Assembly (NCBI GenBank): GCA_963704885.1
Contig: CAVPIB010000004.1
Location: 1,072,793-1,136,792 of the forward strand
DNA: 64,000 nucleotides
Origin: an uncultured Actinomycetes bacterium
Lineage (GTDB): Bacteria > Actinomycetota > UBA4738 > HRBIN12
Direction of reading: 5' to 3'
Below the pieces are notes generated by a model. The model saw only the letters and a program-made list of their open reading frames with translations, had not been told where the DNA came from and made no database searches. A program made the position numbers and the translations under genes. Positions 29,277-48,671 of the stretch are shown piece by piece. Every line of letters starts with the position of its first letter. Within the stretch, counting starts at the first letter, position 1.

Positions 29277-30284
29277 TCAGTCGAGAAGGCCGAGCACACG
29301 TCCGAAGTTGTCGCCCAGGATCCCATCGATCTTGTGCTGGGGGATCGGCGGCAGCCCGCACGCATCGGCTTCCTCGTTCACACCGACCAACTTCTCCATC
29401 AGCTTCACCGGGTCGTACAGGAACCCGGGGTAGTCGGTACCGAAGAAGATCTTCTCGAGCGGGACGAACATCGGCTCGCAGCGGGACAGCAACAGGAACA
29501 GGTCCCTCCTCGTGATGCTCGCGATCAGGTAGGACAGCTCCGCGTAGAAGTTGGGATGTTTCGTGAGCAGGAACAGAGCCTCGTCGACCCACGGCAGTCC
29601 GCAATGCGCGACGATCACGCGCAGATCCCTGAACACGCGGCCGATATCGTCCAGGAGCGCGGGCCGCCCGAGCTCGAGCTTGGCGTCGATGCGGGTCGAG
29701 CCCGCCTGGTGGATCATCACGGGGATCCCCAGTTCCTGAGCCTTGGCATAGACCGGGAAAGCGACGTCTGGATCGTTGGGCGCCCAATGCTGGTACATCG
29801 GGTAGAGCTTCACTCCCGAGAGTCCGAGCTCGACGACGGCCCGTTCGAGCTCGGCGACCGCCGCCTCTGGTCCGTTGTACATCGGGTTCACCGACGCGAA
29901 CCCGATGAACCGGTCGGGGTCGGTGTGCACGACCGCAGCGATGTAATCGTTGCAGAGGTCGGGGTGCTTCGGCCCGTCGACCCCGAGGAGCCCCGTCGTG
30001 TCGACGGTCCCGATCAGTCGCCCATCCAGCCACTGCGGCGAGATCGCCAGGACGACCACCTTGTCGAACCCGGGGTGATCGCGAAGCGACTCCTCCGGCC
30101 CGATCACCGGCCACCCCTTGCGCGTGAAGCCGCTCGCCTCCCACTCCTCCTCGGTCGGCATCCGGTGCGACGGAAGGAGTCCCATGCTCCTGTAGATGCA
30201 CAGCGACCCCTCGCGGCCGTACTCGATGGTGAACTCCGGATCCTCGGCGAGGCTGAGGATGTGGCTGTGCGCGTCGATGATCAC
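29277..30284 (-). CDS. Amidohydrolase_2 family protein
   Basis: IIDAHSH, KLYP, MIHQAG, IVAHCG, FGTDYP; GTG 30284 overlaps TGA of upstream gene (GTGA). Confidence 0.85.
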   Translation of the reverse strand: MIIDAHSHILSLAEDPEFTIEYGREGSLCIYRSMGLLPSHRMPTEEEWEASGFTRKGWPVIGPEESLRDHPGFDKVVVLAISPQWLDGRLIGTVDTTGLLGVDGPKHPDLCNDYIAAVVHTDPDRFIGFASVNPMYNGPEAAVAELERAVVELGLSGVKLYPMYQHWAPNDPDVAFPVYAKAQELGIPVMIHQAGSTRIDAKLELGRPALLDDIGRVFRDLRVIVAHCGLPWVDEALFLLTKHPNFYAELSYLIASITRRDLFLLLSRCEPMFVPLEKIFFGTDYPGFLYDPVKLMEKLVGVNEEADACGLPPIPQHKIDGILGDNFGRVLGLLD

Positions 30285-31862
30285 GACGCCACTCCCGGTG
30301 GCCGCTTCGCGTTGTAGGCATAGGCGGGCTCGACGGGCATCCCATACCAGCGCTGATAGAAGTCGATCACGTACGGCTCGACCAGCCGACCGAGCTCCGC
30401 CCACCTCTGCACGTCGCTCGGGGAGCCGGTAGACGCGCTCGTGCACCGCTGCCGCGAACCGTTCCTTCACGGCGTCCTCGTCGACAACGGTCACGCGCCC
30501 GCCTTCGACCAGGACGCGGCCCTGCACCATCACCGTGTCGATGTCGGACGCCTCCGCCCGGTCGAGCACCACGTCCAGGAACGGCTCCTGGTCGTAGCGA
30601 CCCGGCGGGAACATGATCCGTTCCTTGTCGACGATCAGCAGGTCGGCCAGCCGGCCGGGCGCGAGGGATCCAAGCCGGTCTTCCATCCCCAGAGCGCGAG
30701 CACCGTTGACGGCGGCAGCCCGAAGCACCGCTTCGCTATCGAGCCGTTGCCGTTCGAACGTGTGTGGCATCCGCTGCAGGTAGCAGGCGAGCCGCAGCTC
30801 CTGGAAGAAGTCCTCGCGATCGGAGAACGAGATGCCGTCCGTGCCGAAGGCGATCCGCCCGCCGGTATCCATGATGTCGCGCACACGACAGATCCCGCTC
30901 GACAACCTGAGGTTCGACCCGGGATCGTTCGACGCGACGGCCCCTGAATCCGCGAAGATCTGTAGCTCGTCGTCCGTCACCCAGACGAAGTGCTCCAGCA
31001 CGGTCTCGGGTGTCAACACCCCGATGTCGGCCAGACGCTGGAGCGCGGGCTTCCCGTACCGCTCGAGGTTGTAGAGCATCTCCGATCGCGTTTCGAGCGC
31101 GTGCGTGATCATCCCCGTTCCGTGCTCGTCCGCCGTTCGTCGGCAGAGACGATAGAGGTCGTCGGAGCACGCCGGTGTCCAGTCCGGCGCCGTCACGATC
31201 CTGAAGCGGTCGTCTCGGCCATGCCAGGTGGAGTGCAGACGCTCGAACGACGCCATCACGTCCTCGATCGGCCAGGCATAGCCCATCGGTGAACCGCGAA
31301 CCTCATCAGCCAGGTCGGCGGGCAGGCGTTCGAGGAAGCGTTCGTTGGGCTCGTGGACGTAGATGTTCTCGTCACGACTCACGAGGCCGAACGCGGTCCG
31401 CATGCCGATGTCCTCGTAGGCCCTCAGCGCCGGAGGGCATCCGAAGTCGGACATGCCCGGCCTCCCGTAGTACATGTCGACCGTCGCGGTCTGCCCACCC
31501 TTCAGCGCGTTGACCAGCCCCCAGAGGACCCCTGTGTAGAGGTCTTCTTCCTCGATGTCGCCGGTCGCCGCCTGGATGAAGACGTTCGCACGCTCGAAGA
31601 TGAACTGATACAGCCCCGGACCGATGGCGAGCTCGGAGTGGTAGTGACAGTTCACGAATCCCGGCATCACGAAGTGGGCGCCCGACCCGAGCACGGCGTC
31701 GAACGGACCCCGACCTTCGAGCTCGGTGCGTGCACCAGCCGCCACGATCGTCGAGCCCTCGACGATCAGCGCGCCGTCGGGGATCAGCGCCTGCTCACCC
31801 AGCGCGACGATCGGGTCACCCAGGATCAGTCTTCGCCCAACGGGTGTATCTACGAGCGTCAT
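30281..31862 (-). CDS. Metal-dependent deaminase/amidohydrolase (AtzA/MTA-SAH deaminase-like; frameshift near 30415)
   Basis: PGFVNCHYH, THALET, EHFVW, FGTDG; shifted frame ends VQRWAELGRLVEPYVIDFYQRWY...PGVAS* at 30281. Confidence 0.82.
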
Positions 31863-31874
31863 CGTGCGGCCTTC

Positions 31875-33200
31875 CTACGAGGGCACGACCATCCTTTCGA
31901 GCACGTGCTGGAACGCAAGGTTCGCCTCGTGCAGAGTGCGTCCCTCATCGATCGTCGTGAACTCTCGGTCGCGGTAGAGGATCTTCCCGTCGACGATCGT
32001 CGTGTTCACCGCACTCCCGTTAGCGGCGAAGACCAGATGTGAGTACAGGTGCGCCTTCGACTCGGGGAACAACGGTGTGAACATCTGGTTGCCGAGGTCC
32101 ACCGTGATCACATCGGCCTTCTTGCCCACCGTCAGCTCGCCCGTGTCGTGCCTAAGCGCAGCGGAACCGTTGCGCGTGGCCATCCGCACCACGTCGGGCG
32201 CCTGCTGCAGGCTTGGGTCCACCCGGCTCGCGCGATGTATCAGCGACGCGAACTTCATCACCTCGAACAGGTCGCGGCTGTTGTTGCACTCAGCGGCGTC
32301 GTGACCGAGCCCGACGTTCAGCCCGGCGGCGAGCATCTCCGGAACGCGGGCGATCCCGTTGCCGAGCTTCGCGTTCGAGGACGGGTTGTGTGAGATCTGC
32401 GTTCCCGTCTCCCGCATCAGCGCGATCTCGGTATCGGAGAGCCAGACGCAGTGCGCCGCGATGCATCGATCGAATAGGATGCCGCAGTCGTACGCGACCT
32501 CGGTCGGACGCCGGCCGAACCGTTCCTTGGAGTTCTCGACCTCGGTCAGTGACTCGTTCAGGTGGATGTGGATCCCCGTATCCAGATCGTCCGCGAGCAT
32601 CCTCGTGTCTCTCAGAAGTCCTTCCGAGGCGAGCGGCAGCCACTCGATGCCGATGTACACCTCGATGCGGCCGTTCGCCGCGCCGTTTGATTGCTCGTAG
32701 GCGGCCTTGTTGTCCTCCAAGGTGTCGAGGTCGTGCTCGTCGTCGGCGACGTCGTTAGACAAGACGGCCCGGATCCCGATCTCCTCCGCCGCCCTGGCCA
32801 GCCCGCCCAACTGGCGGTACATGTCGTTGACCGTCGTTACGCCGCACTTGATCGACTCGCTGTAACTCGCGAGAGCCGCCCAGTAGGCCTCCTCCGGGTT
32901 CAAGGCCCGGATGATCGGATACCAACACGTGTCGAGGTACTCCCACAGCGGCAGGTGGTCGCTCCAGCCCTTGCCGACCGCGGTGTGGTAGTGCAGGTCG
33001 ACGAGGCCGGGGAGGACCGCCTTGTCGGAGGCGTCGATCACGGTCGCGCCGGCCTCTTCGGTCCTGCCGGCGACATCGGCTGCGGTGCCGACGTCGGTGA
33101 TCCGGTCGTTCTCGATCACGACGGTGCCGCCGAAGATCACGTCGTCCGCGTCGTTCATGGTGACCACGGTGCCGTTCTTGATGATGATCCGATCGCTCAT
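31875..33200 (-). CDS. Metal-dependent deaminase/amidohydrolase (MTA/SAH deaminase-like)
   Basis: PGLVDLHYH, HIHLNES, AAHCVW, HNPSSNAKL, GHDAAECNN. Confidence 0.9.
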   Translation of the reverse strand: MSDRIIIKNGTVVTMNDADDVIFGGTVVIENDRITDVGTAADVAGRTEEAGATVIDASDKAVLPGLVDLHYHTAVGKGWSDHLPLWEYLDTCWYPIIRALNPEEAYWAALASYSESIKCGVTTVNDMYRQLGGLARAAEEIGIRAVLSNDVADDEHDLDTLEDNKAAYEQSNGAANGRIEVYIGIEWLPLASEGLLRDTRMLADDLDTGIHIHLNESLTEVENSKERFGRRPTEVAYDCGILFDRCIAAHCVWLSDTEIALMRETGTQISHNPSSNAKLGNGIARVPEMLAAGLNVGLGHDAAECNNSRDLFEVMKFASLIHRASRVDPSLQQAPDVVRMATRNGSAALRHDTGELTVGKKADVITVDLGNQMFTPLFPESKAHLYSHLVFAANGSAVNTTIVDGKILYRDREFTTIDEGRTLHEANLAFQHVLERMVVPS

Positions 33201-33213
33201 CGCGTCCCCCTTC

Positions 33214-34725
33214 CTATCGAGAGATCCCTTGCCCCGACTGGGGCACCGCCGAGGTCAGGTCGACCCAGACCGACTTCGAGTGCAGGTATGGCTCCAACGC
33301 CTCCTCGCCTAGCTCCTTGCCGAACCCGGAGTGCTTCCGACCGCCGAACGGCACCGCGACGTCGAACATCCCGTAGGTGTTGATCCATACGGTGCCGGCG
33401 TCGAGGCGGTCGGCCAGACGCAACGCCTTGCTCACATCCGACGTCCAGATGCCGGAGGCGAGACCGTAGTCGACGCCGTTCGCGAGCGCGAGCAGCTCCT
33501 CCTCGTCCTTCCACGGTATGACCGAAAGAACGGGACCGAAGATCTCCTCCTGGGCGACCTTCATGTCGTTGCGCACCCCGCTGATGACCGTCGGTTCCAG
33601 GAAGAAGCCGCCCTCGTGTCCGCTCACGCTCGCGTCCGAACCCCCGACGACCACGTCCGCGCCCTGCTCCCGGGCCGACTCGACGTAGCTCTTCACGCGC
33701 GTCCGATGGGCCGCCGAGATGAGCGGCCCCATCTGAGTGTCGGGATCGAGGCCGGAGCCCAGTCGGATCTGGCCCGCCCGTTCGCTGACCACGGCTGCGA
33801 GCTCGTCGGCCACCGATGCTTCCACGAAGAGTCGCGACCCGGCGACGCAAGCCTGGCCCTGGTTGAAGAAGATGCCGCCGAAGGCTCCGCTCGCGGCCGC
33901 ATCGAGGTTCGCGTCCGCGAACACGATGTTAGGGCTCTTGCCTCCGAGCTCCAGGGACACGCGCTTCAGACCGTCGGCTGCGCTCCGCATGATCTCCTTC
34001 CCGGTGGCCGTCTGACCCGTGAAGGCGATCTTCTGCACGCCGGGATGCCGCACGAGCGCGGCACCGATGTCGGGTCCCCCGATCACGACGTTGACGACGC
34101 CGGGTGGGAAGCCGGCCTCGTGGACCAACTCCATCAGGCGGAGCGTGGAGAGCGGCGCGAGCTCGGATGGCTTGATCACGATCGTGCAGCCAGCCGCAAG
34201 CGCGGGACCGAGCTTGTAGCCGACCTCCAGCAGCGGGAAGTTCCACGGTGTTATCGCCGCGACGACGCCGACGGGCTCCCGCTTGGCCACCGTGAACATC
34301 CCCGGGATCGAGTTGGGCAGGACCTTCCCCTCGATCTTCGTCGTCCATCCCGCGTAGTAGCGCAGCAGCTCGATCGTCAGCGCGATGTCGACGGCCTCCG
34401 CCTCCCACATCGGCTTGCCGTTGTCCAGGACCTCGATCGTCGCGAACTCGTCCTTGTTCGCCTCGAGGAGGTCGGCGAGCGTCCACATCAGCCGGGCTCG
34501 CTGGGTCGCGGGCGTGGATCGCCACACGTCGAACGCGCGAGCCGCGGCCGCGACCGCGGCATCGACCTCGCGTTCGGTCGCGAGCGGCGCCTCGGCGAGG
34601 GTCTGGCCCGTCGCCGGGTTGATCGTCGCGAGCGAACCGTCCGTCTCCACGAACGCCCCGTCGATGTACAGGCGGAGCGGCCGGTCCAAGAACCCCATCG
34701 TCTGCTCGGAGATCGTGGATGCCAT
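33214..34725 (-). CDS. NAD(P)-dependent aldehyde dehydrogenase
   Basis: ITPWNFP, LELGGKSP, FNQGQAC, EEIFGP, PFGGRKHSGFGKE. Confidence 0.95.
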   Translation of the reverse strand: MASTISEQTMGFLDRPLRLYIDGAFVETDGSLATINPATGQTLAEAPLATEREVDAAVAAAARAFDVWRSTPATQRARLMWTLADLLEANKDEFATIEVLDNGKPMWEAEAVDIALTIELLRYYAGWTTKIEGKVLPNSIPGMFTVAKREPVGVVAAITPWNFPLLEVGYKLGPALAAGCTIVIKPSELAPLSTLRLMELVHEAGFPPGVVNVVIGGPDIGAALVRHPGVQKIAFTGQTATGKEIMRSAADGLKRVSLELGGKSPNIVFADANLDAAASGAFGGIFFNQGQACVAGSRLFVEASVADELAAVVSERAGQIRLGSGLDPDTQMGPLISAAHRTRVKSYVESAREQGADVVVGGSDASVSGHEGGFFLEPTVISGVRNDMKVAQEEIFGPVLSVIPWKDEEELLALANGVDYGLASGIWTSDVSKALRLADRLDAGTVWINTYGMFDVAVPFGGRKHSGFGKELGEEALEPYLHSKSVWVDLTSAVPQSGQGISR

Positions 34726-34741
34726 ATCTCGTTTGCCTCCT

Positions 34742-35770
34742 TCAGCTCGTGAGCTCGAGCACCTGACGCCCCAATACGGCGCGCCTGCGCAGCGCATCGA
34801 GCGCTTCGTGGATCCCTTCGAGCGGATAACGGCCCGCGATGGGCACCGTCAAAGCGCCCGCCGCCGCGAGCGTGAGCGCGTCCTGCAGGTCCAGACGCGT
34901 CGCCGCCACCGTGGACACGAACGACGTCTCCGGCAGGATGAATTCGATCGGATGGATCTCGAGTAACTGGTCCGTGTAGCCCGTCGACACGAAACGCCCG
35001 CCCTTGGCGAGGGACCGGATGCCCGCGTTCATGGTCTGGGTCGTCCCCACGAGCTCGTAGAAGACGTCGGTGCCTCGTCCGTCCGTGAGCGCTCGCACTC
35101 GGTCCGGCACGGTCTCGTAGCTCTCCGGCGAGTCGACCAGCACCCCATCGCTCGCACCATGTGATCTCGCAAGCTCGAGCTTCTCCTCCGAGTCGCCGAT
35201 CGCGATCACTCGTGCGCCGGCGTGGGCCGCCGCCTGAACCACGATGATGCCGACGCCACCGATCCCGTTCACGACCGCGGTGTCTCCCAGGCGCAGCCCC
35301 GAGAGCTTGGTCGCGTGTATCGCCGTCATCCCTGCGCACGTGAGGACGGAGGCGGCCGCCAGGTCGACGTCGTCGGGAACCGGCACGGCGTTCTGCTCGG
35401 GGACGACGACGTACTCGGCGTCGCCTCCGTCCCGGTTGAAACCGAGCTGTTCGGGCTCGTTGTCGCAGATGTTCGTCCGGCCCTTGAGGCACTGCTCGCA
35501 CCGACCGCAGAAGATCTTGTTGTAGATCGCGACGCGCGATCCGGTCGTCAAGGACACTCCATCTCCGACGCCCTCGACCATGCCGGCGGCCTCGTGCCCG
35601 AGCGTCATCGGGTACGGGTCCGGCTTGATCATGCCGTCGAGGATGTGGAGATCGGTCCCACACACACCCGCGGCGTGGATCCGGATCAGCACCTCGCCCG
35701 GCCCCGGGATCGGGTCGTCGATCTCGTCCAAACGCAGAGATAGGTCTTCGTGGATCCGTACCGCACGCAT
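34742..35770 (-). CDS. Zn-dependent alcohol dehydrogenase
   Basis: GVCGTDLH, GHEAAG, CGRCEQC...C, GIGGVG. Confidence 0.93.
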   Translation of the reverse strand: MRAVRIHEDLSLRLDEIDDPIPGPGEVLIRIHAAGVCGTDLHILDGMIKPDPYPMTLGHEAAGMVEGVGDGVSLTTGSRVAIYNKIFCGRCEQCLKGRTNICDNEPEQLGFNRDGGDAEYVVVPEQNAVPVPDDVDLAAASVLTCAGMTAIHATKLSGLRLGDTAVVNGIGGVGIIVVQAAAHAGARVIAIGDSEEKLELARSHGASDGVLVDSPESYETVPDRVRALTDGRGTDVFYELVGTTQTMNAGIRSLAKGGRFVSTGYTDQLLEIHPIEFILPETSFVSTVAATRLDLQDALTLAAAGALTVPIAGRYPLEGIHEALDALRRRAVLGRQVLELTS

Positions 35771-36478
35771 CTACGCTCCTTCTCCCTCGGTGGGACCGGC
35801 AGAATGGTCGTCGCCATACGCCATGTCCCAGAACTCGGCCTCGTACCGTGTGGATCGCTCGAAGATCCGCGAGAGGCTCGCCATGCGGCCCTCGTCGCTC
35901 GGATCGACGAGTCTGTCGAGCAGAGCCGTGCTCTGCGCCACCAGCCCGTCGTATTCGTCGTTGCCGAACATCCCGATCCAGTCGGCGTAGATCGGGTCAT
36001 CCGGCGGGTGCGCCGTGAGCGGCCGCGCCAACTCCCCGTAGCTCCACTGGCACGGCAGCACCGCGGTGAGTCCATCCGCGCAGTCGCCGAGAGCGCAGAC
36101 GGAAAGGAGGTGCCGCGTGTACCCGTAGGTGGCCGGGAACATCTCGCCTCGGCCGGCGAACGTGTCGGGATCACCTCCAAGGCGATCGAGGAAAGCGAGG
36201 TTGGCAGGGATCTCGCCCTCGACGATCCGCGCCTGGAACCTCGTGAGGACCGTGATCGCATCCCGGTCGGGGGCCTTCCCGACGATCATGCCGATGGCTC
36301 GCGCATAGTCCTCGAGATACGGGATGTTCTGAGTGAAGTACCGCCTGAAGGTCTCGTGCGGGAGCGAGCCGTCCGCGATGCCCCTTACCATCGGGTGATG
36401 GACCGCTGCATCCCACGAATCCCTCCCTTGCCGGTGAAGGATCGAAGCCACGCGGCCATCTGGCCGTTCCCCGGTCAC
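35771..36478 (-). CDS. tenA: TenA family protein (thiaminase II / aminopyrimidine aminohydrolase-like)
   Basis: HPMVRGIADGSL, LPCQWSY (catalytic Cys), YADWI, YEAEFWDMAY; QN where QD is usual. Confidence 0.85.
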   Translation of the reverse strand: MTGERPDGRVASILHRQGRDSWDAAVHHPMVRGIADGSLPHETFRRYFTQNIPYLEDYARAIGMIVGKAPDRDAITVLTRFQARIVEGEIPANLAFLDRLGGDPDTFAGRGEMFPATYGYTRHLLSVCALGDCADGLTAVLPCQWSYGELARPLTAHPPDDPIYADWIGMFGNDEYDGLVAQSTALLDRLVDPSDEGRMASLSRIFERSTRYEAEFWDMAYGDDHSAGPTEGEGA

Positions 36479-37194
36479 TCAACCACCTCGTCTTCGAACG
36501 CCGCCCTCGTGGCCAGCTGATCTGCCAGGACGCTGCCGATGTGGACCCGCATCAGCCGCTCCGCCTCGTCCGGATCGCGCGCGACGATCGCCTCCACGAT
36601 CGCTGCGTGTTCCTCGACGGATGACTCGACCCGTCCGGGGATGCTCTCCGTGAGCTTGCCGATCCTCGTGAGGTGCGCCCGCAGGTTGTCGATCAGGGCC
36701 CCGATCCGCTCGTTCTTCACCTGTGCGTACACGATCACGTCGAACCGCTCCAACAGTCCCGCCAGCCCGACCAGATCGCCCGCGTCCCGGAGCTCACGGC
36801 TGCGGTCGACCACGTCGCGCAGCGCGCCGACGGTTTCATGGTTCGACCCCTCGGCAGCTGCACGCGCGGCGGCCCCTTCCAGTAGCGCGCGCAGCTCGTA
36901 GATCTCCATCAGATCCCGCTCCGAGTAGCCCGATACGACCGCGCCTTTGAAGGTGGTCGTCTCCACGAGTCCCTCCAGCTTGAGTCGCGCGAAGGCTTCG
37001 CGGAGCGGCGTCTTGCTCACCCCCAGCTGTTCGGCCAGCGCCGCCTCCCGCAGCGGCTCGCCGGGAAGGAGACGAAGCTCGATGATCGCGTCACGGAGCT
37101 CCTCCCACACCCAATCGGTCATGTTGCGGCGGTCGGGGCGTCCCGTGAACACGGGCCGTTCTTCACTCGTCTCCGCGCTTCGCAGGTCGTCCAT
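36475..37194 (-). CDS. GntR-family transcriptional regulator (FCD)
   Basis: LAEQLGVSKTPLREA, IYELRALLEG, EEHAAIVEAI. Confidence 0.93.
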   Translation of the reverse strand: MDDLRSAETSEERPVFTGRPDRRNMTDWVWEELRDAIIELRLLPGEPLREAALAEQLGVSKTPLREAFARLKLEGLVETTTFKGAVVSGYSERDLMEIYELRALLEGAAARAAAEGSNHETVGALRDVVDRSRELRDAGDLVGLAGLLERFDVIVYAQVKNERIGALIDNLRAHLTRIGKLTESIPGRVESSVEEHAAIVEAIVARDPDEAERLMRVHIGSVLADQLATRAAFEDEVVE

Positions 37195-39725: not shown

Positions 39726-40924
39726 GAGGCGATCGCCACCCCTTCGGCCACCAGCGCGCCGACGTCCTCCCGGCTGTAGCCGAGCTCGGTCAAGACGTCG
39801 AACGTGTGCTCCCCGAGCGCGGGCGCCGGCGACGGATAGTCGAGCGGCTCCAGGTCGAACCGCACCGGCGTCCCCACGACGCGGTAGTCGCCGGCGCTCG
39901 CGTGATGCAGCTCCTGCACCGCGCCCAGAGCCCGCGTCTGTTCGCTCGCGAGGATCTGCGCGATGTCTTGGACCTCGGCCGCCGGGACGCCTTCGGCGCC
40001 GAGCAACGCCAGCCAGTGCTCGCTCGGCTCCCGGCGAAGAACCTCTTCCAGCGCGGCCGTCAACTCGTCGCGGTGGCTGACGCGAGAGGCGTTATCTGCG
40101 AACCGGGGATCGTCGAGCAGGTGCTGGGCACCGAGCACCCCGCAGCACCGGACCCACAGGTCTTCGGAGCCGGCCCCCGCCAGCACGATCCAACCGTCGG
40201 CGGTGCGGAACCCGCCGTAGGGCGCGAAGGTCGGAGAGTGCGTCCCCAGCAGGCCGGGCACCTGCCCCGAGACGAACGTGCTCGCCGCGAGCGACCCGAG
40301 GGCGGCGAGCGCGAACTCGAGCAACGAGGACGACACGTGCCTCCCGATCCCGGTGCGCTCCCGTTCGACGTGCGCGGCCAAGAGGCCGAACGCGCAGCAC
40401 ATGCCCGCGCCGACGTCCAGCACGGGAGCGCCGACCTTCACCGGGCCCGACCCCTCGCTGCCGGTGACGCTCATCAGCCCGCTCTCGGCCTGAAGGATCA
40501 GATCGAACCCGCCGCGGGCCGCGTCGGGCCCGACGTCGCCATAGCCGGAGATAGAGCCGTAGACGATCGACGGGAAGCGCTCGTGCACGGTCTCCCAGTC
40601 CAGCCCGTAACGCGCGAAGCTTCCCGGCCGGGCGTTCTCGACCAGGAAGTGCGAGGAGGCGAGCAACCGGTCGACCGCCTCGGTCGCCAGAGGCGAGCGG
40701 AAGTCCAGAGCGAGGCTCCGCTTGCCCGAGTTCAGCGAGAGGAACAGCACCGACTGATCCCCGAGCCGCTCGGTCCCTTGCACCCGGTACGGATCTCCCC
40801 CCGGCGGCACCTCGAGCTTCACGACGTCGGCGCCGAACGCCGCCAACAGCGCGGTCGTCTGCGATCCGGCCACGAAACGCGTCAGATCGAGAACGCGCAG
40901 GCCTTCGAGCGGCCGGCTCACCAT
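39722..40924 (-). CDS. Family III (CaiB/BaiF) CoA transferase
   Basis: [48 protein letters not shown]. Confidence 0.93.
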
Positions 40925-42513
40925 GGATGCGGCTCCCTGAACTCGCCGAATACCGATCGGAAGACATCCGACAGCTCTCCCAAAGTGGCCCCGACTCGCA
41001 CAGCGTCGACCAGCGAGGGCATCACGTTGGAGCCGTCACGGGCGGCGGCCTCCACGACGGCCGTCGCGTCAGCGCACGCCGCCTGGTCGCGGGCAGCCAC
41101 GCGCGACGCGGTGCGCGCCACCTGCCGGTCCGCGATCGAAGGATCCAGCGCGAACAGCTCCGGGGTCTCGGCGGAGGTCTCAGCTGGGTCCGCGTACACG
41201 TTCACCCCGACCCGCGGTCGCGTTCCGTCGGCGGTCTCGCGTTCGATCCGGTACGCGGACTCTGCGATCCAGCGTTGCGACACGCCTCGTTCGATCGCCT
41301 CCACCGCGCCTCCGAGCGCCGCGATCTCGGTCAGGACCTCGTTCGCACGCGCCTCGAGCTCGTCGGTCAGCGTCTCCAGGTAGTAGGAACCGGCCAAAGG
41401 ATCGACCGTCCGAGGCACGCCCGACTCCAGGGCGACGATCTGCTGCGTGCGGAGCGAGAGCGTCACCGCCTCCTCCGACGGGATCTCGAACGCCTCGTCG
41501 TAGCCCATCACGTGGATCGACTGCGCTCCCCCGAGCACCGCCCCGAGGCACTGGATCGTCGAGCGGATGATGTTGTTGAGAGGCTGCTGCGCGGTAAGCG
41601 TGGTGCCTGAATTGCCCGAGAAGAACCGCAGCCGCCCGGAGTTCGGGTCCTTCGCGCCGAACCGTTCGGTGGCGATCCGGTACCACATCCGTCGCGCCGC
41701 GCGGAGCTTCGCCACCTCCTCGAACAGGTCCATCGTGGTGGCGAAGTGGAACGAGAGCCGCGGTGCGAACGAATCGAAGTCCAAGCCGCGAGCGACCAGA
41801 GCTTCCGCGTACGCGATCGCCGACGCCAGCGTCAGTGCCAGCTCCTGGACCGCGTCGCAGCCAGCCTCACGCGCGTGGTATCCGGTGATCGAGATCGGAT
41901 TGAACCTCGGGAGCCGCCCCGACGCGAACTCGATCACGTCGCAGGACAACCGCATCGACGGCTCGGGCGGGAAGACGAAGGTCTTGCGGGCGAGGAACTC
42001 CTTCAAGATGTCGTTCTGAAGCGTGCCGGCGAGCGCTCCCTGGGACACGCCCTGCCGCTCGGCGGCCACGAGGTACATCGCCAGGATGATGGGGGCGGTC
42101 GCGTTGATCGTGAAGTTCACCGAGATCTCGTCCAGCGGCAGCCCCGCGAACAGGTCGACCATGTCCTCCGCGGTGTCGATCGCCACCCCGACCCGCCCGA
42201 CCTCCGACCGCGCCACGGGATGACCGGAGTCGTAGCCGAGCTGCGTTGGAAGATCGAACGCGACCGACAATGCCGTCTGGCCTCGATCGAGCAGGAAGCG
42301 GAACCTCTCGTTCGCCTCCTCGGGAGACCCGAAGCCTGCGAACTGACGCATGGTCCACAGCCGTCCGCGATACATCGAGGGATAGGGACCGCGCGTGAAC
42401 GGCGGCGCTCCGGGGGCGCCGAGCCGTTCGGCCAACCCGGGCGCCAGGTCGTCTTCCGCATAGACCTCGCGCACAGGGATGCCGGCGTCGGTCACGTCGC
42501 GGACCTCGCTCAC
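40918..42513 (-). CDS. B12-dependent acyl-CoA mutase, large subunit (divergent active site)
   Basis: [54 protein letters not shown]; GTG 42513 overlaps upstream stop. Confidence 0.9.
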
Positions 42514-42915
42514 GGCTCCACCCGCTCTCGCGACGCCAGCGCGAGTACCCCCTCGACCACCTCGTGCAGTCCCGTGCCGACCGGGTAGACGGCCGCGACG
42601 CCCAGCTCCCGTGAGCGCTGCGGCGTCCACATCGGGGACCGTGCCGCCCACGACGACCGGGATGTGGACGCCCTCGGCATCCCGCGCCTGCAGGAGGTCG
42701 GCCGCGAGCGGCATGTGCGCGCCCGACAGCACCGAGATCCCGATCACGTCGACGTCTTCCTGGATCGCCGCCTGCACGATCTCAGGGGCCGTCCGGCGCA
42801 GGCCCAGATAGACGACCTCCGCGCCGGCGTCCCGCAGCGCCATCGCGATCACCTTGATGCCGCGGTCGTGCCCGTCCAGTCCGGGCTTCGCGAGCAGGAC
42901 GCGCGGCTGCCTCAC
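42510..42915 (-). CDS. B12-binding small subunit of acyl-CoA mutase (frameshift near 42600)
   Basis: [10 protein letters not shown] (DxHxxG), SVLSGAH, VVVGG; shifted frame ends [10 protein letters not shown]...RERVEP* at 42510. Confidence 0.85.
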
Positions 42916-43878: not shown

Positions 43879-45090
43879 TCAGGTCCCTTCGGCTGACGTC
43901 AGCGCCAGCGCGGCAAAGACCGAGTAGACCTTCGTCGCCTCGTGGATGTCCTCGACCGTCAGGTGCTCGTCGGGGCAGTAGACGGGAGGTCCTCCGGGTC
44001 CGAAGATCACGGTCGGCACCTTCTCCCCGAAGCTGGCCGTGTCGCCTAGCCAGTTCTCCACGACGAGCGGCGGCTCCTCCCCTCGCACGTCGCGCACCGC
44101 CGCTCGCATCAGTCGCACGACGTCGTCGTCCGGAGCTGCGAGGTACCCCGCCTTCACGTCGGCCAGCACGACCTCCGCACGGAAGCGCGGGTCGGCCTTA
44201 GCCGCCTCGCCCAGGCACCTGTCGATCTCGGCGCGAACTTCGTCGATCGATACGCCGGGCTGCGGCCGGCAGTCGACGCGGATCACGCACTCGTCCGGGA
44301 TCATGGAGGGACCACCGGGCGCGAGCCCACCGTAGATCCGGCCCGGGACTATGAAGGTCTCGGCTCCGAACAGGTCGACGATCCAGGGCTCCAGCTGCGG
44401 CTCGTACTTCGACGCGTCCAGGGCCAGCACCGCCTGGGCCGCGAGCACGTTCGCGTTGATCGCCTGTGGTTTGTGGCACGTGTGGGCGGACCGGCCGACC
44501 GTCGTGATATCGAAGTAGTAGCGACCCCTGTGTCCCAGGCAGACCTGGTTGTCGGTCAGCTCCCCGAGGACGCATAGGTCGGCGTCGAACTCGTCGAAGT
44601 ACGCGATCGAACCGAGCTGGTCGCCCATATGGTCGGCCACCGCGGCCATGCTGACGGTGCCCTTCAGCGGCAACCCCGATGCGCGGACCGATTCGATCGC
44701 CACGATCTGACACGCCAGCGCGGCCTTCATGTCCATGACGCCGTGGCCGTATACCGACCCATCGATCAGGGCACCCGAGAACGGCTCCGTGACGCTCCAC
44801 CCTTGCGATACCGGCTTCGTGTCCATATGGCCGGTGAGGACAACCCTCGGGCCATCCCCGAACGAGGCGTGCCCGACGGCGTTGGGTCGGTCCGGAAGCA
44901 CCGGTTGAAGCTGCACGCCCTCGAAGCCCGACTCGGACATAACGGAGGCCAGGAACGCAGCCAGTTCGCCCTCCTCACCGAGGACGGACGGGATCCGGCA
45001 CACCTCCTGGACGAGCTCCACAGCGCGATCCAGATCGAGCGCATCCAGGACGTCGGTGGTCACCGAGGTGGTATCTGATATCTCACGCAC
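43879..45090 (-). CDS. M20 family deacylase (ArgE/DapE/YlmB-like)
   Basis: GHMDT, GHGVMDMK, GRSAH, FGPG...DEH; DH where EE is usual; start approximate (GTG 45090 just below a TACCTT -10). Confidence 0.82.
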   Translation of the reverse strand: MREISDTTSVTTDVLDALDLDRAVELVQEVCRIPSVLGEEGELAAFLASVMSESGFEGVQLQPVLPDRPNAVGHASFGDGPRVVLTGHMDTKPVSQGWSVTEPFSGALIDGSVYGHGVMDMKAALACQIVAIESVRASGLPLKGTVSMAAVADHMGDQLGSIAYFDEFDADLCVLGELTDNQVCLGHRGRYYFDITTVGRSAHTCHKPQAINANVLAAQAVLALDASKYEPQLEPWIVDLFGAETFIVPGRIYGGLAPGGPSMIPDECVIRVDCRPQPGVSIDEVRAEIDRCLGEAAKADPRFRAEVVLADVKAGYLAAPDDDVVRLMRAAVRDVRGEEPPLVVENWLGDTASFGEKVPTVIFGPGGPPVYCPDEHLTVEDIHEATKVYSVFAALALTSAEGT

Positions 45091-45099
45091 CAGGGCGGA

Positions 45100-45129
45100 A
45101 AGGTAACGTCTGCACTGCCGATGGGTCAA
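45100..45129 (-). promoter_or_regulatory. Sigma70-type promoter for the leftward catabolic operon
   Basis: Minus strand TTGACC-N18-TACCTT upstream of GTG 45090; divergent TTGACA at 45161-45166. Confidence 0.55.
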
Positions 45130-45196
45130 ACCCATCGTGGATCAGGTGCAAGGTCTTCGTTTGACAACGGTTCGCATCTCGTATCTCATATGCCGC

Positions 45197-45958
45197 ATGA
45201 CAGCCCTCGCCACCCCGGCGATAGAGCTCAGAGGTGTGCGCCAGCGATTCGGTGATGTCGTCGCGCTCGCCAACGTGGACTTCACGGTCAACCGGCACGA
45301 GCGGCTGGGGATCGTGGGCCCGAGCGGCTGTGGCAAGTCCACCCTCCTCTCCGAGATCGCGGGACTCATCCAGCCCGACGAGGGGACGGTCTCGATCGAC
45401 GAGGCAACGACGCCGAAGGAGCGCCTCAAGCGGTGTGCACTGATGCCGCAGCGAGATCTCCTGCTCCCCTGGCGGACCGCCATCGACAACGCCGCGATCG
45501 CCCTGCAGAACCGGGGCATGAAGATCGCCCCGGCACGGGAGAAGGCGCGGCCGCTGTTCGAGCGGTTCGGTCTCGCGCAGTTCGAGGAGCGGATGCCTGC
45601 CGAGCTCTCCGGCGGCATGCGCCAGCGCGTCGCGTTCCTGCGGACCCTCATGGCCGAGAAGGACATCCTCCTCCTCGACGAGCCGTTCGCGGCCCTCGAC
45701 TCGATCACCCGGTCCAGCATGCAGGAGTGGCTGCTCTCCGCGCTCGAGCAGGAACCCCGGACGGTCCTGCTCGTTACCCACGACGTGGACGAGGCACTCT
45801 TGCTCACCCATCGGGTCATGGTGATGTCCGCGCGCCCCGGGCGGATCGTCCGCACGCTCGAGACGGACCTACCGCGCGATCGTTCGCGCCGCGAAGTCGT
45901 CACATCGCCGCAGTTCTCGGCCTTGAAGGAGTCCGCACTAGAGGCGCTGGAACTATGA
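45197..45958 (+). CDS. ABC ATP-binding protein (ThiZ-like)
   Basis: GPSGCGKST, LMPQRDLLLPWRT, LSGGMRQRVAFLRT, LLDEPF. Confidence 0.92.
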   Translation: MTALATPAIELRGVRQRFGDVVALANVDFTVNRHERLGIVGPSGCGKSTLLSEIAGLIQPDEGTVSIDEATTPKERLKRCALMPQRDLLLPWRTAIDNAAIALQNRGMKIAPAREKARPLFERFGLAQFEERMPAELSGGMRQRVAFLRTLMAEKDILLLDEPFAALDSITRSSMQEWLLSALEQEPRTVLLVTHDVDEALLLTHRVMVMSARPGRIVRTLETDLPRDRSRREVVTSPQFSALKESALEALEL

Positions 45959-46761
45959 ACGAGCAGGCAAGCGACCTCACACCGAAGCCGAGCGGGTCGA
46001 GCGTGCGCCGGATCGTGGATCGATACGGACCCCCGGCGCTCGTGGTGGTGGTCACGATCGCACTGTGGGAGATCGTCATCCAGATCCTCGACGTGCCGAC
46101 CTACATCTGGGCGCCCCCAACGCTCATCGCCCAAACCATCCAAGAGCGTTTCCCGGAGCTGATCCATCACGGAGGCGTCACGTTGATGGAGACCATGATC
46201 GGCTTCTTCTTCGCGATCTTCTTCGGCCTGTCCTTCGGGTTCCTCCTGCACTTCTCGACGATGGCCAGGCGTGCGCTCTATCCGATCCTCATCGCCTCGC
46301 AGAGCATCCCGACCGTGGTGCTCGCGCCGGTGTTCGTGCTGGTCCTGGGGTTCGGCCTGTGGCCGAAGGTCGGGGTCGTGACCCTCTTCTGCTTCTTCCC
46401 CATCGTGGTGGGCACGATCGACGGGTTGTCGGGTGTGGACCGCGAGTACATCCGGATGATGCTTACGCTGGACGCGACGCGGATGGGCATCTTCCGGCGG
46501 GTCGAGTTCCCTTCAGCCCTGCCGCAGATCTTCTCCGGCACGCGCGTGGCCGCCACCTACGCGGCGATCGGGGCGGTCTTCGGGGAGTGGGCCGGCTCGC
46601 AATCCGGTCTGGGCTGGCAGATGCTCCAGGCGAAAGGCCGACTCGACACGCCCCTCGTATTCGCCGACATCGTATTCATCACCGTGATGGCACTGGCGCT
46701 CTTCGGCGCCGTGTCGCTCGTCGAGCGCCTGACCATCCCCTGGGCGCGGAAAGGGGGGTGA
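45955..46761 (+). CDS. ABC permease (ThiX-like)
   Basis: SQSIPTVVLAP, FFPIVV, PSALPQIFSG, GAVFGEWAGSQSGLG. Confidence 0.9.
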   Translation: MNEQASDLTPKPSGSSVRRIVDRYGPPALVVVVTIALWEIVIQILDVPTYIWAPPTLIAQTIQERFPELIHHGGVTLMETMIGFFFAIFFGLSFGFLLHFSTMARRALYPILIASQSIPTVVLAPVFVLVLGFGLWPKVGVVTLFCFFPIVVGTIDGLSGVDREYIRMMLTLDATRMGIFRRVEFPSALPQIFSGTRVAATYAAIGAVFGEWAGSQSGLGWQMLQAKGRLDTPLVFADIVFITVMALALFGAVSLVERLTIPWARKGG

Positions 46762-46840: not shown

Positions 46841-47911
46841 ATGGATCTGAAGAAGCGGAACATCCGTTCCCGCTTGCTCGCCCTCGGCGTCGTGATGGGC
46901 GTCTTGCTGGCGGCCTGCGGGAGCGACGCGGAAACCCCGGCGGCATCGCCGTCTTCCGGAGAGAGCCCCACCACGGCAGAGAGCCCAACGATGGCGCCCG
47001 CCACGCTTAAGGTGGCGCTGGACTGGTTCGCGAACCCCGATCACGTCGCGCTCTACTACGCGCAGGACAACGGGTTCTTCGCCGACCAGAACCTGACCGT
47101 TGAGTTCGAGGTCCCCTCGGACGTCACCGCAGGCCTCAAGCTCGTCGGGACGAACAAGTTCGACCTCTCGATCTTCTATCAGGGCGACATGTTCTTCGCC
47201 GCGCAAGAAGGCCTCCCCGTGATCGCGGTGGGCTCGCTGGTGCCGCAGCCTCTCAACTCGCTGATGGCGCTCGCGGACTCCAAGGTCCAGGGACCGGATA
47301 CCGTGAAGGGCGCCACGATCGGGGTCGCGGGGCTTCCGTTCGATGACGCGATCCTGGAGACGATCCGCACGACGCAGGGGCTGGCGGAATCCGACGTGAC
47401 CAGCGTCAACGTGGGGTACGACCTCGTCCCGGCACTGCTCTCGAAGCAGGTGGACGCGGCGATCGGGACTTACTTCAACATCGAGGGCGTCCACATCGAG
47501 TCCAAGACCGGTGAGGCGCCGGTCATCGTGAAGATGGCTGAACTCGGAGTCCCCACCTACGACGAGCTGATCGTCGTCGGCAACAGCGAGCGGCTGCAGA
47601 GCGACCCGGAGTACGCGGACGCCGTCAGCCGCTTCCTGACCGCGTTGGTCGAGGCGACGAAGGCCGCTCAGGCCGACGAGGCCGGATCGATCGCGACCAT
47701 GGAGGCGAACACCGAGTACACGGAAGAGGAGATCGCAGCGATGGTTCCCGACACTCTGCCGCTGCTCTCTTCACCGCAAGGGCTCGAGACGGGCTGCTTC
47801 AGCCTGGAAGCCTGGCAGACGTTCGGTGACTGGATGTTCGACAACGGACTCCTGGATGCGGCGGTCGACCCCGCCACCATCGCCACCAACGACTACTTGC
47901 CGGCCTGCTGA
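46841..47911 (+). CDS. NMT1/THI5-family substrate-binding lipoprotein (ThiY-like)
   Basis: LAAC lipobox, LDWFANPDH, GVPTYDEL, TNDYL; GGAGG RBS. Confidence 0.88.
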   Translation: MDLKKRNIRSRLLALGVVMGVLLAACGSDAETPAASPSSGESPTTAESPTMAPATLKVALDWFANPDHVALYYAQDNGFFADQNLTVEFEVPSDVTAGLKLVGTNKFDLSIFYQGDMFFAAQEGLPVIAVGSLVPQPLNSLMALADSKVQGPDTVKGATIGVAGLPFDDAILETIRTTQGLAESDVTSVNVGYDLVPALLSKQVDAAIGTYFNIEGVHIESKTGEAPVIVKMAELGVPTYDELIVVGNSERLQSDPEYADAVSRFLTALVEATKAAQADEAGSIATMEANTEYTEEEIAAMVPDTLPLLSSPQGLETGCFSLEAWQTFGDWMFDNGLLDAAVDPATIATNDYLPAC

Positions 47912-47920
47912 GAACGAGCG

Positions 47921-47953
47921 ATGGCGGGGGAGGCCACCGGCCTCCCCCGCCAT
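47921..47953. terminator. Perfect 15-bp hairpin between convergent genes (probable bidirectional terminator)
   Basis: ATGGCGGGGGAGGCC-ACC-GGCCTCCCCCGCCAT. Confidence 0.8.
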
Positions 47954-47969
47954 CTCCTTCCTGAAGAGA

Positions 47970-48671
47970 TCAGCCCTCGAGGAGATCGGGCCACTGCTCG
48001 AGCGTGTAGGCCATCTCCCAGAACGAACGTTCCAGCCGCGAACTCGTCGCGAAGATCTCCGCGATCTCGCGCCGGCGAACATCGCTCGCGGCTTCCTCCA
48101 ACATCAGCACGTCGAAGTCCCGACGCATCTCGGCGACCATCTCCACGACCCGCGGCATCGAGAAGTACGCGATCCACCCTGCGTACACCGGGTGGGTGCC
48201 GTCCGTGCGCTCTCGCAAGGCGGTCGCGATCTCCACGTAGCTCCACGAGCATGGCAGGAGCGCCGCCATGATCTCGAGCGGGCCCCCTCGGAGGGAGAGT
48301 GCCTGCATGTAGCTCGTATACGCAACGTTCGCCGGCGCCATCGCCAAGGAACCGCCCCGGTCCTCCGCTCCGAGCTCGATCACCTGCGCCAAGAGTTCAC
48401 GGTTGCTCGGGATCTCGGCGTCGAGCACCTGGTTCAGATCGACGGTGAAGTATCGGAGCTCACGCTCGGTGCGCGACTTCGCGGCGCCCAACGCCAGGCA
48501 CCGGGCGTACTCCTGCAGATAGAAGACGTCCTGCTCTAAGAAGAACCGGAACTTGTCCAACGGCAACGTGCCCTCGGCCAGCTCGGTGATGAACGGGTGC
48601 TGATGAAGAGCCGTCCAGATGGGCGAGCAATCCTCGCGGAGCAGATCGGAAGACGAGGTCGTCGTGCTCAT
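47970..48671 (-). CDS. tenA: TenA thiaminase II / aminopyrimidine aminohydrolase
   Basis: HPFITELAEGTL, FFLEQD, LPCSWSY, YAGWI, LERSFWEMAY (D/C/E set intact). Confidence 0.9.
   Translation of the reverse strand: MSTTTSSSDLLREDCSPIWTALHQHPFITELAEGTLPLDKFRFFLEQDVFYLQEYARCLALGAAKSRTERELRYFTVDLNQVLDAEIPSNRELLAQVIELGAEDRGGSLAMAPANVAYTSYMQALSLRGGPLEIMAALLPCSWSYVEIATALRERTDGTHPVYAGWIAYFSMPRVVEMVAEMRRDFDVLMLEEAASDVRRREIAEIFATSSRLERSFWEMAYTLEQWPDLLEG

Follow-up and report, generated by a model that had tools for sequence, protein, structure and literature searches.

Why would a bacterium keep two TenA proteins, a ThiXYZ-like importer and a B12-dependent acyl-CoA mutase together in a single gene cluster? 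The question is raised by a 19-kb cluster (positions 29277 to 48671) in a 64,000-nucleotide stretch of contig CAVPIB010000004.1, which belongs to an uncultured Actinomycetes bacterium; this whole stretch is what we call the window. Our results suggest that the cluster probably encodes a so far undescribed pathway for the breakdown of one half of vitamin B1 (thiamine), the pyrimidine. In its more specific form, to which we assign a probability of about 0.5, the cluster would encode a GntR-controlled catabolic route for thiamine-derived aminopyrimidines that ends in a mutase of the methylmalonyl-CoA mutase (MCM) type, and this mutase would linearise a branched C4 remnant. The identity of the substrate (formylaminopyrimidine, FAMP; the 5-aminomethyl pyrimidine AmMP; or hydroxymethylpyrimidine, HMP) and each reaction step are what we infer from the sequence.

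Pyrimidine 5-carboxylic acid (PCA) was seen in soil bacteria in the 1960s and also in urine. To our knowledge, there are no known genes for the fates of thiamine's pyrimidine and its oxidised products. An article from 2024 describes what becomes of PCA and of other oxidation products of thiamine as unknown or orphan (PMC11223231). Full-text searches of the open-access literature on thiamine or pyrimidine catabolism and on F420, NicX or mutase routes for pyrimidines found no description of such a cluster.

The gene set itself is not in doubt. A sequence-only reading of the window had listed fifteen genes running leftward, a divergent ThiXYZ-like importer and a second TenA. Pfam and NCBIfam protein scans, which define the gene families in the window, found all of them at the coordinates listed in Table 1. 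Many adjoining genes overlap by 4 nt. From the control region leftward, the order is an M20 deacylase (M20a), a 320-aa M29-like protein, the small and the large mutase subunit, a family III CoA-transferase, a second M20 deacylase (M20b), a luciferase-like oxidoreductase (LLM), an epimerase-like protein, a GntR/FCD regulator, TenA1, a zinc-dependent alcohol dehydrogenase (ADH), an aldehyde dehydrogenase (ALDH), two deaminase-type amidohydrolases (DEA1 and DEA2) and an Amidohydro_2 protein (AH2). The same reading had found no thiD or thiE in the window, which is correct: both map elsewhere on the same contig. The host genome is 3.0 Mb long in 20 contigs, with 67% G+C and an estimated completeness of 97%, and its close relatives are uncultured soil Actinomycetota.

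Do these genes belong together? Co-occurrence in other genomes had been named beforehand as one test that could refute the proposal, and the genes do stay together, in several classes and one other phylum and in rearranged orders. We searched genomes with the LLM as seed and scored the resulting 80 loci, each with 10-kb flanks, by tblastn for all cluster proteins. Thirty-seven loci carry an LLM that is at least 48% identical; a TenA lies within 10 kb in 27 of these and the mutase in 29. The set recurs in metagenome-assembled genomes (MAGs) of Actinomycetota, in Acidimicrobiia, Thermoleophilia and Dormibacterota, and in Marmoricola, Nocardioides and Herbiconiux. Gene order varies by lineage, with different arrangements in the window type, in two loci that we call L012 and L013, in Marmoricola, in Acidimicrobiia, in Thermoleophilia and in a Dormibacterota MAG. 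In L012 and L013 all 19 genes, TenA2 and the importer included, are contiguous and point in the same direction. In the Thermoleophilia loci ADH and LLM are flanked by two TenAs. M20b always travels with the trio of CoA-transferase, epimerase-like protein and mutase. Because the gene set is conserved in other genomes, the cluster is far more than a chance neighbourhood.

Metagenomes were scanned with an alignment of TenAs that carry asparagine at position 44 as the seed; the search patterns did not include the asparagine. The figures describe the best-scoring 80 of 522 relatives, 38 of whose loci are at least 6 kb long, and close relatives are over-represented in them for this reason. An Asn44-type TenA lies beside cluster genes in all 38 of these loci. 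DEA1 and GntR are each present in 33/38, LLM in 30/38, ADH in 29/38, AH2 and the CoA-transferase each in 20/38, and ALDH and the mutase each in 18/38.

The ten genomic loci without a TenA are one 7-kb contig, five loci from Herbiconiux, two from Nocardioides and one each from Streptomyces and Pseudactinotalea. For five genomes without TenA in the 10-kb flanks (two Nocardioides, one Herbiconiux, the Streptomyces and the Pseudactinotalea), we searched the whole genome and then wider flanks. In Nocardioides the missing genes share a contig with the core, at a distance of 15–22 kb. They comprise three TenA genes and those for an NMT1 binding protein, an ABC ATPase and a GntR protein, together with Amidohydro_2, DEA2-like, FAD-linked oxidase, ALDH and epimerase-like genes. 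Herbiconiux has a pair of TenAs, a deaminase and an NMT1 binding protein just past the 10-kb flank, less than 10 kb away from the core. The whole-genome searches found no TenA in the Streptomyces and Pseudactinotalea carriers of the core. Two Herbiconiux loci (L018, L107) and the Pseudactinotalea locus (L041) have neither mutase nor CoA-transferase, and a class I/II aminotransferase follows directly after the core; in L041 an amidase stands beside the core as well. Herbiconiux also has monooxygenase-type LLM genes of 440–450 aa, one of them co-directional with its Asn44 TenA.

The two TenA proteins of the window are of different kinds. Against the NCBIfam thiaminase II model TIGR04306, which has a cut-off of 130 bits, TenA1 reaches 126 bits and TenA2 163.3 bits. 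The two are 30% identical, and both keep the equivalents of Cys135, Glu205 and Tyr when aligned with B. subtilis TenA. Position 44 is Asn in TenA1 and Asp in TenA2. Asn occupies this position in 23 of 37 full-length TenA rows from clusters and in 79 of 80 metagenome homologues of TenA1, all 80 of which have the catalytic Cys. In a tree of the 37 rows (rows shorter than 185 aa or with stops were dropped), Asn44 needs two changes, one for a long-stemmed clade of 20 rows and one for three Thermoleophilia rows amid Asp-type sequences; a single origin appears in 5% of bootstrap trees. The TenA-bearing lineages examined, Nocardioides and Herbiconiux included, carry an Asn-type copy beside at least one Asp-type copy, except for Marmoricola and Acidimicrobiia, for which the fetched loci hold only Asp-type rows. 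According to an excerpt of work on B. subtilis TenA, the carboxylate of Asp44 binds the amino group of HMP phosphate and the D44A mutation cripples the enzyme (PMC5623701). TenA1 with its Asn44 may act on a 4-oxo (deaminated) pyrimidine. If so, breakdown through TenA1 would be kept apart from salvage, which leads from TenA2 to ThiD.

The best solved relative of the importer's ThiY-like binding protein is the FAMP-binding ThiY of B. halodurans (3ix1, E = 1.8e-35), followed by THI5/THI13. A second ABC importer of the NMT1 type lies at 312–5824 of the window, beside two permeases and a nitrilase-family (CN_hydrolase) gene.

If the importer and the TenAs handle thiamine-derived pyrimidines, are these salvaged or consumed? 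The regulation of the cluster is informative here. No Rfam family, the thiamine pyrophosphate (TPP) riboswitch included, reaches its threshold in the window or in the loci of seven relatives. The only TPP riboswitch of the genome lies directly before the thiE operon, far from the cluster. The divergent control region contains two copies of GAGATAYSAGATRC, at 45071–45084 and 45174–45187, with the inverted repeat TTGTCAAAC / GTTTGACC between them; these boxes are AT-rich and invariant in a five-locus alignment. The two copies are the only exact matches to GAGATAYSAGATRC in the 64-kb window. Five relatives with the divergent layout also have two exact copies, and six relatives with a co-directional layout have one, upstream of the ABC ATPase. 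GAGATAYSAGATRC would be an operator-like box before the importer and before M20a, the first catabolic gene. A scan of the control region for sigma-70 promoters and terminators found none. The presence of a GntR regulator and a shared operator-like box, together with the lack of a TPP riboswitch in a genome that has one, argues against plain salvage.

The thiamine genes of the host have to be read with some care. The genome lacks ThiC and ThiM, has weak ThiG-like matches, and encodes ThiD and ThiE. Behind the riboswitch (G000:C4:75467-78180, which is L095 3468-6180) stand thiE, a ThiL-like gene of the AIR-synthase family and a gene for a PfkB kinase. Given the lack of ThiM and ThiG, the PfkB protein may phosphorylate the thiazole or the pyrimidine as a non-orthologous kinase. 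ThiC is found in 4 of 24 genomes with the cluster (a Dormibacterota MAG, two Nocardioides and a Streptomyces) and in 1 of 61 genomes of the host's order, with or without the cluster. Since it is so rare in the order, the absence of ThiC in carriers is background and not an association. Its absence as a sign of a salvage-only role can be ruled out, because 60 of the 61 genomes lack it.

More can be learned from the distribution of the cluster, for which we used the gene of the M29-like protein as a marker. The marker occurs in 5 of 401 genomes across the phylum, counting the host and an unpublished genome (G045, 34% identity); within the host's family, 3 of 22 genomes have it. TenA and the marker were both searched for in 15 genomes of the family, of which 2 have both and 13 have neither. 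TenA occurs in 29 of 61 genomes of the order, a count that includes six unpublished genomes; the result for the family is independent of those six. Most relatives without ThiC live without the cluster, which therefore behaves as an accessory island, and such a patchy distribution argues against plain salvage. The earlier proposal, by which the compounds would be used as a nutrient and not salvaged, is thus supported in part: in a host that lacks ThiC but encodes ThiD and ThiE, salvage may be a further role of the importer and TenA2.

Could the cluster instead consist of two unrelated units, a salvage module (ThiXYZ, M20a as a YlmB-like deformylase and TenA2) and an independent catabolic operon that happens to contain a TenA-like gene? 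The host needs scavenged HMP, and importer, M20 and TenA are exactly the salvage set of Bacillus, which work by Jenkins et al. from 2007 is said to have described. However, the linkage outlasts rearrangement in at least seven lineages, and L012 and L013 have importer and catabolic genes in one contiguous, co-directional stretch. The same GAGATAYSAGATRC box stands before the importer and before M20a, the TPP riboswitch is missing from the window and from the loci of the seven relatives, and TenA and the marker gene were gained and lost together in the family. We consider an arrangement of two separate units very improbable.

The large subunit of the mutase has an MM_CoA_mutase domain, and the small subunit has a B12-binding domain with the DxHxxG motif. 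The closest solved relatives of the large subunit are HcmA (4r3u, 1.1e-154), the large subunit of 2-hydroxyisobutyryl-CoA mutase (HCM), and human MCM (7e-134). As in HCM and in isobutyryl-CoA mutase (ICM), the small and large subunits are split. The specificity positions differ from both, with a mixed set of Phe or Tyr at the position of Tyr89, Ala at the position of HcmA Asp117, and Arg at 207, where HcmA has Gln. We take the specificity pair of HcmA to be Ile90/Asp117 and presume the residue identities for HCM and ICM in this comparison. These residues rule out that the enzyme is a 2-hydroxyisobutyryl-CoA mutase. The equivalent of Arg207, the carboxylate-binding residue of MCM, is present in 23 of 23 orthologues. 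The equivalent of Tyr89 is Phe here and in 15 orthologues and Tyr in 8. An MCM-type Arg fits a skeleton rearrangement, as in the sequence-only reading, in which a branched C4 unit with a carboxylate is the substrate. The mutase is an extra paralogue, one of three mutase genes in the genome; another of the three (L084) has an ICM-like Phe/Gln pair. There is no gene for a G-protein chaperone in the cluster.

The named models closest to the CoA-transferase are those of succinate-glutarate, formyl-CoA and succinyl-CoA:mesaconate transferases, and its matches to all of them are under cut-off. All best NCBIfam and PDB relatives of the LLM are F420 enzymes (Mer, 1z69, 7.4e-42), the NCBIfam matches lying under their cut-offs. 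The genome encodes CofD and an F420 ligase in adjacent genes; judging from this pair, the host can make F420. Every NCBIfam equivalog match of the ALDH is under cut-off. M20a reaches 170 bits against TIGR01910 (cut-off 217.6), and its solved relatives are DapE and ArgE. Both M20 enzymes match general ArgE/DapE models under cut-off, and for M20b the carbamoylase and allantoate amidohydrolase models score between 5e-6 and 4e-4.

The best solved relative of DEA1 is the methylthioadenosine/S-adenosylhomocysteine deaminase 4f0r (5.4e-54), with 8-oxoguanine deaminase and atrazine chlorohydrolase also matched. DEA2 is 25% identical to DEA1, and its sub-threshold NCBIfam matches include formimidoylglutamate deiminase (3e-28) and imidazolonepropionase, which are amidine hydrolases. 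AH2 is closest to BB4693, ACMSD, LigJ and the gamma-resorcylate and 5-carboxyvanillate decarboxylases among solved proteins, and its HxH and GTDYP motifs align with ACMSD. It is a candidate decarboxylase or hydratase, or perhaps a lactonase.

The 320-aa protein has no match in local Pfam or NCBIfam. The M29 model PF02073 does not match it at E values up to 5 and has no match in its genome, and a search with the Pfam M29 model across 21 relatives gave one weak match. The AlphaFold2 model (pLDDT 94.7) nevertheless has a recognisable fold: Foldseek aligns it to NicX with a TM score of 0.78 and to the M29 aminopeptidases PepS, AmpS and AmpT with TM scores of 0.65–0.72, and a profile match to NicX (7cn3) reaches 8e-14. 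Six residues are invariant: E252, E269, E271, H278, H296 and D298. The His318/Asp320 pair of NicX is kept, whereas NicX His265 aligns with the invariant Glu252. With one iron ligand replaced by Glu, we downgraded a NicX-type dioxygenase as a candidate. The protein is more likely a hydrolase, because of this replacement and because the additional invariant Glu and His residues recall what we take to be the two-metal site of M29 peptidases.

How could these enzymes work together? In our model the ThiXYZ-like ABC importer would feed FAMP, AmMP and HMP into the cell. An M20 deacylase would strip the formyl group from FAMP and a TenA would hydrolyse the C5-aminomethyl group. ADH and ALDH would then turn the 5-hydroxymethyl group into the 5-carboxylate, the known metabolite PCA, which would commit the compound to breakdown. 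DEA1 would take off the 4-amino group, the F420-type LLM would reduce the ring, and DEA2 and/or the M29-like hydrolase would open it. Hydrolytic opening of a 2-methylpyrimidine would give an N-acetimidoyl and then an N-acetyl compound, with DEA2 as the amidine hydrolase, and the 2-methyl carbon would be released as acetate by an ArgE-type M20 deacetylase. The branched C4 remnant (C4, C5, C6 and the C5 substituent) would become a substituted malonate. Activation by the CoA-transferase, epimerisation and the B12 mutase would finally yield a linear skeleton of the succinate or aspartate type. In one atom-balanced version, AmMP would be converted into acetate, three ammonia and aspartate via (acetamidomethyl)malonyl-CoA. 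The succession of aminomethyl hydrolysis, oxidation to the carboxylate, removal of the 4-amino group and ring chemistry is suggested by the operon order TenA1-ADH-ALDH-DEA1-DEA2-AH2. Only a carbon-skeleton mutase can linearise a branched, carboxylated C4 unit, which would explain why CoA-transferase, epimerase-like protein and a mutase with Arg207 form a constant trio.

The model has precedents in logic, if not in enzymes. In vitamin B6 degradation by Mesorhizobium loti and Pseudomonas MA-1, oxidation turns side-chain alcohols into acids, ring opening gives an N-acetyl compound, and a hydrolase splits this compound into acetate, ammonia and a C4 acid. There, too, the substrate is a 2-methyl N-heterocyclic vitamin. 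The enzyme families differ, however: the cluster encodes no homologues of the flavin-dependent ring-opening oxygenases and has LLM, cog0402-type deaminases, the M29-like protein and a B12 mutase instead. The thymine branch of the PydABC pathway, which leads through methylmalonate semialdehyde to succinyl-CoA, could work alike, in that the ring is reduced, opened hydrolytically and deacylated to a beta-amino acid, and in that the C4 unit is branched because of the 5-substituent and has to pass through the epimerase and mutase of the methylmalonyl-CoA route. The cluster has none of the defining enzymes of PydABC. In their place it has the F420-type LLM, M29-like and cog0402 hydrolases and M20 enzymes of the ArgE/DapE type. 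The fungal thymidine salvage pathway contains isoorotate (uracil-5-carboxylate) decarboxylase, which AH2 resembles in being an Amidohydro_2 protein that follows the oxidation of an alcohol to an acid at C5 of a pyrimidine. Among 20 PDB sequence matches of AH2 there is no solved isoorotate decarboxylase; BB4693 and ACMSD are closest.

With ThiXYZ-YlmB-TenA salvage in B. halodurans and B. subtilis, the cluster shares the ThiY-type binding protein, the permease, the ATPase, an M20 enzyme of the ArgE/DapE type and a Cys135-type TenA. It differs in lacking a TPP riboswitch and any linkage to thiD or thiE and in its GntR control, and it adds the Asn44 subtype of TenA and twelve co-conserved genes of catabolic type.

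Several observations weigh against our model. First, AH2, the M29-like protein and the two M20 enzymes have roles that the sequences do not tell apart. Should AH2 act as a decarboxylase on the 5-carboxylate, then the mutase step loses its proposed substrate. Second, binding proteins of the NMT1 family reportedly also serve purine-oxidation systems (PMC7373994). The only two loci of the genome that encode NMT1-type binding proteins lie in this window, and in a host without ThiC, ThiM and a clear ThiG the importer and TenA2 could therefore be needed for salvage. Third, FAMP and HMP are present at 13–36 pM in seawater, according to an excerpt (PMC10470507). This level would be too low to feed a cell, but it is a figure for seawater and not for soil. 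Fourth, none of 20 RNA runs contained this stretch (all at or below 0.14 of words). Fifth, the four frameshifts described below could mean that this copy has recently begun to decay and not that the assembly is wrong. Finally, the cores in Streptomyces and Pseudactinotalea adjoin a nucleoside importer of the Bmp/PnrA type. A core that is present without TenA is not tied to thiamine as such.

This last point leads to a different substrate for the same machine: other 5-substituted pyrimidines or related N-heterocycles, among them thymine, the 5-hydroxymethyl forms of uracil or cytosine, or the 5-aminomethyl pyrimidines of modified DNA. The TenAs would cleave C5-methylene substituents, AH2 would act like isoorotate decarboxylase, LLM, hydrolase and M20 would replace the reductive pyrimidine pathway, and the mutase module would take a methylmalonate-type product. 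The TenA-less cores beside a Bmp/PnrA importer and an amidohydrolase fit such a role, as does TenA1, which with Asn44 has lost the binding residue for HMP's 4-amino group. So do the xanthine-dehydrogenase-type genes near the cluster in three lineages and the aminotransferase that replaces the mutase in Herbiconiux (with an ALDH in addition) and Pseudactinotalea, an arrangement like that for disposal of beta-amino acids. In eight orthologues, moreover, Arg207 and Tyr89 form the pair of a true methylmalonyl-CoA mutase. Yet the best solved relative of the binding protein is the FAMP-binding ThiY, TenA2 lies above the NCBI equivalog cut-off for thiaminase II, and an Asp44-type TenA is kept beside the Asn44 type (apart from Marmoricola and Acidimicrobiia with their Asp-type copies). 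The M20 enzymes, too, group with ArgE/DapE deacylases and not with the carbamoylase or allantoate amidohydrolase models, and so the N-acetyl or N-formyl products of a 2-methyl ring fit better than N-carbamoyl products. We regard a different substrate as unlikely.

The low concentrations in seawater lead to another question: does the cluster feed the cell, or does it protect it? It could destroy look-alike or deaminated pyrimidines (4-oxo forms, oxidised forms or antivitamins) that enter through a broad importer, and so guard a thiamine synthesis that depends on scavenged HMP. Picomolar substrate argues against feeding, as far as the excerpt goes (PMC10470507), and the 2024 article noted above acknowledges that what happens to oxidised thiamine products is a gap in knowledge (PMC11223231). 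A TenA with Asn44 would suit a 4-oxo ring, and ThiC is absent from 17 of 18 genomes with a TenA-linked cluster. But the lack of ThiC extends across the whole lineage (in the order, 1 genome out of 61 has it) and does not track the cluster, and the fullest version of the cluster is found in Nocardioides that have ThiC. A 15-gene route to central metabolites also exceeds what detoxification needs. Damage control of this kind seems distinctly unlikely to us, and we return to the breakdown of thiamine-derived aminopyrimidines as the preferred explanation.

Table 1. Features of the cluster, with coordinates in the window, strand, and the matches or other evidence on which each rests.
Feature	Coordinates	Strand	Basis and remarks
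AH2, Amidohydro_2, ACMSD/LigW/LigJ type	29277..30284	-	PF04909, E 2.5e-34; GTG start at 30284
DEA2, TRZ/ATZ/HutF-like deaminase group amidohydrolase	30285..31862	-	Amidohydro_1, E 2.5e-46
DEA1, heterocycle aminohydrolase (cog0402-type deaminase)	31875..33200	-	Amidohydro_1, E 2e-59
ALDH	33214..34797	-	Aldedh, E 4.6e-181; likely start near 34725
Zn-dependent alcohol dehydrogenase	34742..35770	-	ADH_N + ADH_zinc_N
TenA1, TenA_C type, Asn for Asp44 ('QN')	35771..36478	-	PF03070, E 4.9e-34
GntR/FCD transcription regulator	36475..37122	-	PF00392 + PF07729
Methylmalonyl-CoA-epimerase-like (Glyoxalase_4)	37194..37646	-	PF13669; TIGR03081 90.8 bits vs cut-off 114.95
LLM, luciferase-like oxidoreductase, F420-dependent Mer type	37643..38647	-	PF00296
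M20b, ArgE/DapE-type M20 deacylase, three frames here	38644..39725	-	N- and C-terminal pieces match M20 models
Family III CoA-transferase	39722..40924	-	PF02515, E 1.9e-112
Acyl-CoA mutase large (catalytic) subunit	40918..42513	-	PF01642, E 7e-194
Mutase small B12-binding subunit	about 42510..42915	-	PF02310, E 6.8e-26; DxHxxG = LDGHDRG
M29/NicX-fold metalloenzyme, 320 aa	42912..43874	-	PF26233 on database homologues, JGI name 'aminopeptidase T'
M20a, ArgE/DapE-type M20 deacylase, first gene of leftward operon	43879..45063	-	PF01546 + PF07687; start at 45063 inferred from alignment with relatives
Divergent control region	45071..45187	-	Invariant blocks in 5-locus alignment
ABC transporter ATPase, ThiZ-like	45197..45958	+	NCBIfam taurine/nitrate/sulfonate-type ATPases
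ABC transporter permease, ThiX-like	45955..46761	+	PF00528; SaoP/SsuC/TauC-type models
NMT1/THI5-like substrate-binding lipoprotein, ThiY-like	46841..47911	+	PF09084, E 8.9e-50
TenA2, canonical thiaminase II ('QD' type)	47970..48671	-	PF03070, E 4.6e-40

Is this copy of the cluster intact? The gene identities of the sequence-only reading stand, but its picture needs some corrections. In this assembly DEA2 and AH2 form a single open reading frame (ORF) of 861 aa, the small and large mutase subunits form one of 744 aa, and M20b is spread over three frames. The cause is four 1-nt insertions that are specific to the window, at about 30416 (DEA2), at 39138 and 39383 (M20b), and at about 42613 (mutase small subunit). 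In DNA alignments the extra base at the 3' end of DEA2 and that at the 3' end of the mutase small subunit are each absent from 3 of 3 aligned relatives. At both M20b sites contigs from other public runs have one letter fewer, and one such contig, 97% identical over 39105–39462, is without both extra letters.

The affected genes have intact, separate counterparts in relatives (L012, L028, L030, L004 and L025). There, DEA2 has its own stop, overlapping the start of AH2; the mutase small subunit is a separate 132-aa gene in L012, and L025 has a stop between the subunits. M20b orthologues are intact at 366–378 aa in L012, L028 and L030. Fusion proteins of DEA2 with AH2 and of the two mutase subunits are thus ruled out by insertions that relatives do not share. 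An ancient M20b pseudogene is likewise unsupported, given the 97%-identical contig. The second NMT1 gene at the start of the window (312–975), which encodes a binding protein, is also split, over two frames, so that at least five genes within 64 kb carry single-base insertions or frame breaks. The insertions are probable consensus (assembly) errors. Because the assembly probably carries such indel errors, an annotation of this genome from ORFs will over-call fusions and pseudogenes.

The surroundings of the cluster contain further genes. Directly downstream of AH2, and on its strand, comes a gene with a PPK2 polyphosphate kinase domain (28381–29150), and an ORF with a PemK/MazF-like toxin domain lies at 50076–50546. 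Just upstream, between 18865 and 28358, is a second gene set of the N-heterocycle type, with FAD and Fer2/MoCoBD subunits of the xanthine dehydrogenase family, a 471-aa protein without a Pfam match, an AA_synth protein (PF06684), an amidohydrolase, an isochorismatase-family hydrolase and a nitroreductase. Nocardioides (L106 8781-11150) and Thermoleophilia (L033 16846-19239) likewise have MoCoBD genes close to the cluster. Since they recur in these three places, a molybdenum hydroxylase may belong to the pathway.

The TenA genes of Nocardioidaceae (L105/L106, G021:C3:164000-198000; Marmoricola L024 14-4167) adjoin an oxidase of the FAD_binding_4/ALO type and an ALDH. Near them are two rhodanese genes, genes with a metallo-beta-lactamase fold, a TauE/SafE exporter gene and a RidA gene. 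Together they may form a larger island that also handles the sulfur-containing thiazole half of thiamine.

One can go further and make a joint claim, which we put forward tentatively and which, as a whole, we think doubtful. The cluster would be the first bacterial gene set for the breakdown of the B1 pyrimidine. In an atom-economical route, AmMP would yield acetate, three ammonia and a C4 product, either an amino acid or a dicarboxylate. It would include two new activities. The first would be a TenA with Asn44 that cleaves a 4-oxo pyrimidine and in this way separates breakdown from salvage. The second would be a B12 mutase that converts (acetamido/amino/hydroxy)methyl-malonyl-CoA into a CoA ester of the aspartyl or malyl type. 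The claim would also comprise an island for thiamine utilisation of about 45 kb in Nocardioidaceae, in which sulfur-handling genes take care of the thiazole half.

What does the cluster mean for the biology of these bacteria? As a defined cluster that is widespread in soil, it would make the fate of thiamine's pyrimidine a question that can be tested in cultured Nocardioides and Herbiconiux. It offers a new subclass of TenA and possibly a new specificity among acyl-CoA mutases. It also means that TenA and ThiY matches in metagenomes are not automatically a sign of salvage. If our explanation is true, then the cluster would provide a sink term for the environmental cycling of vitamin B1.

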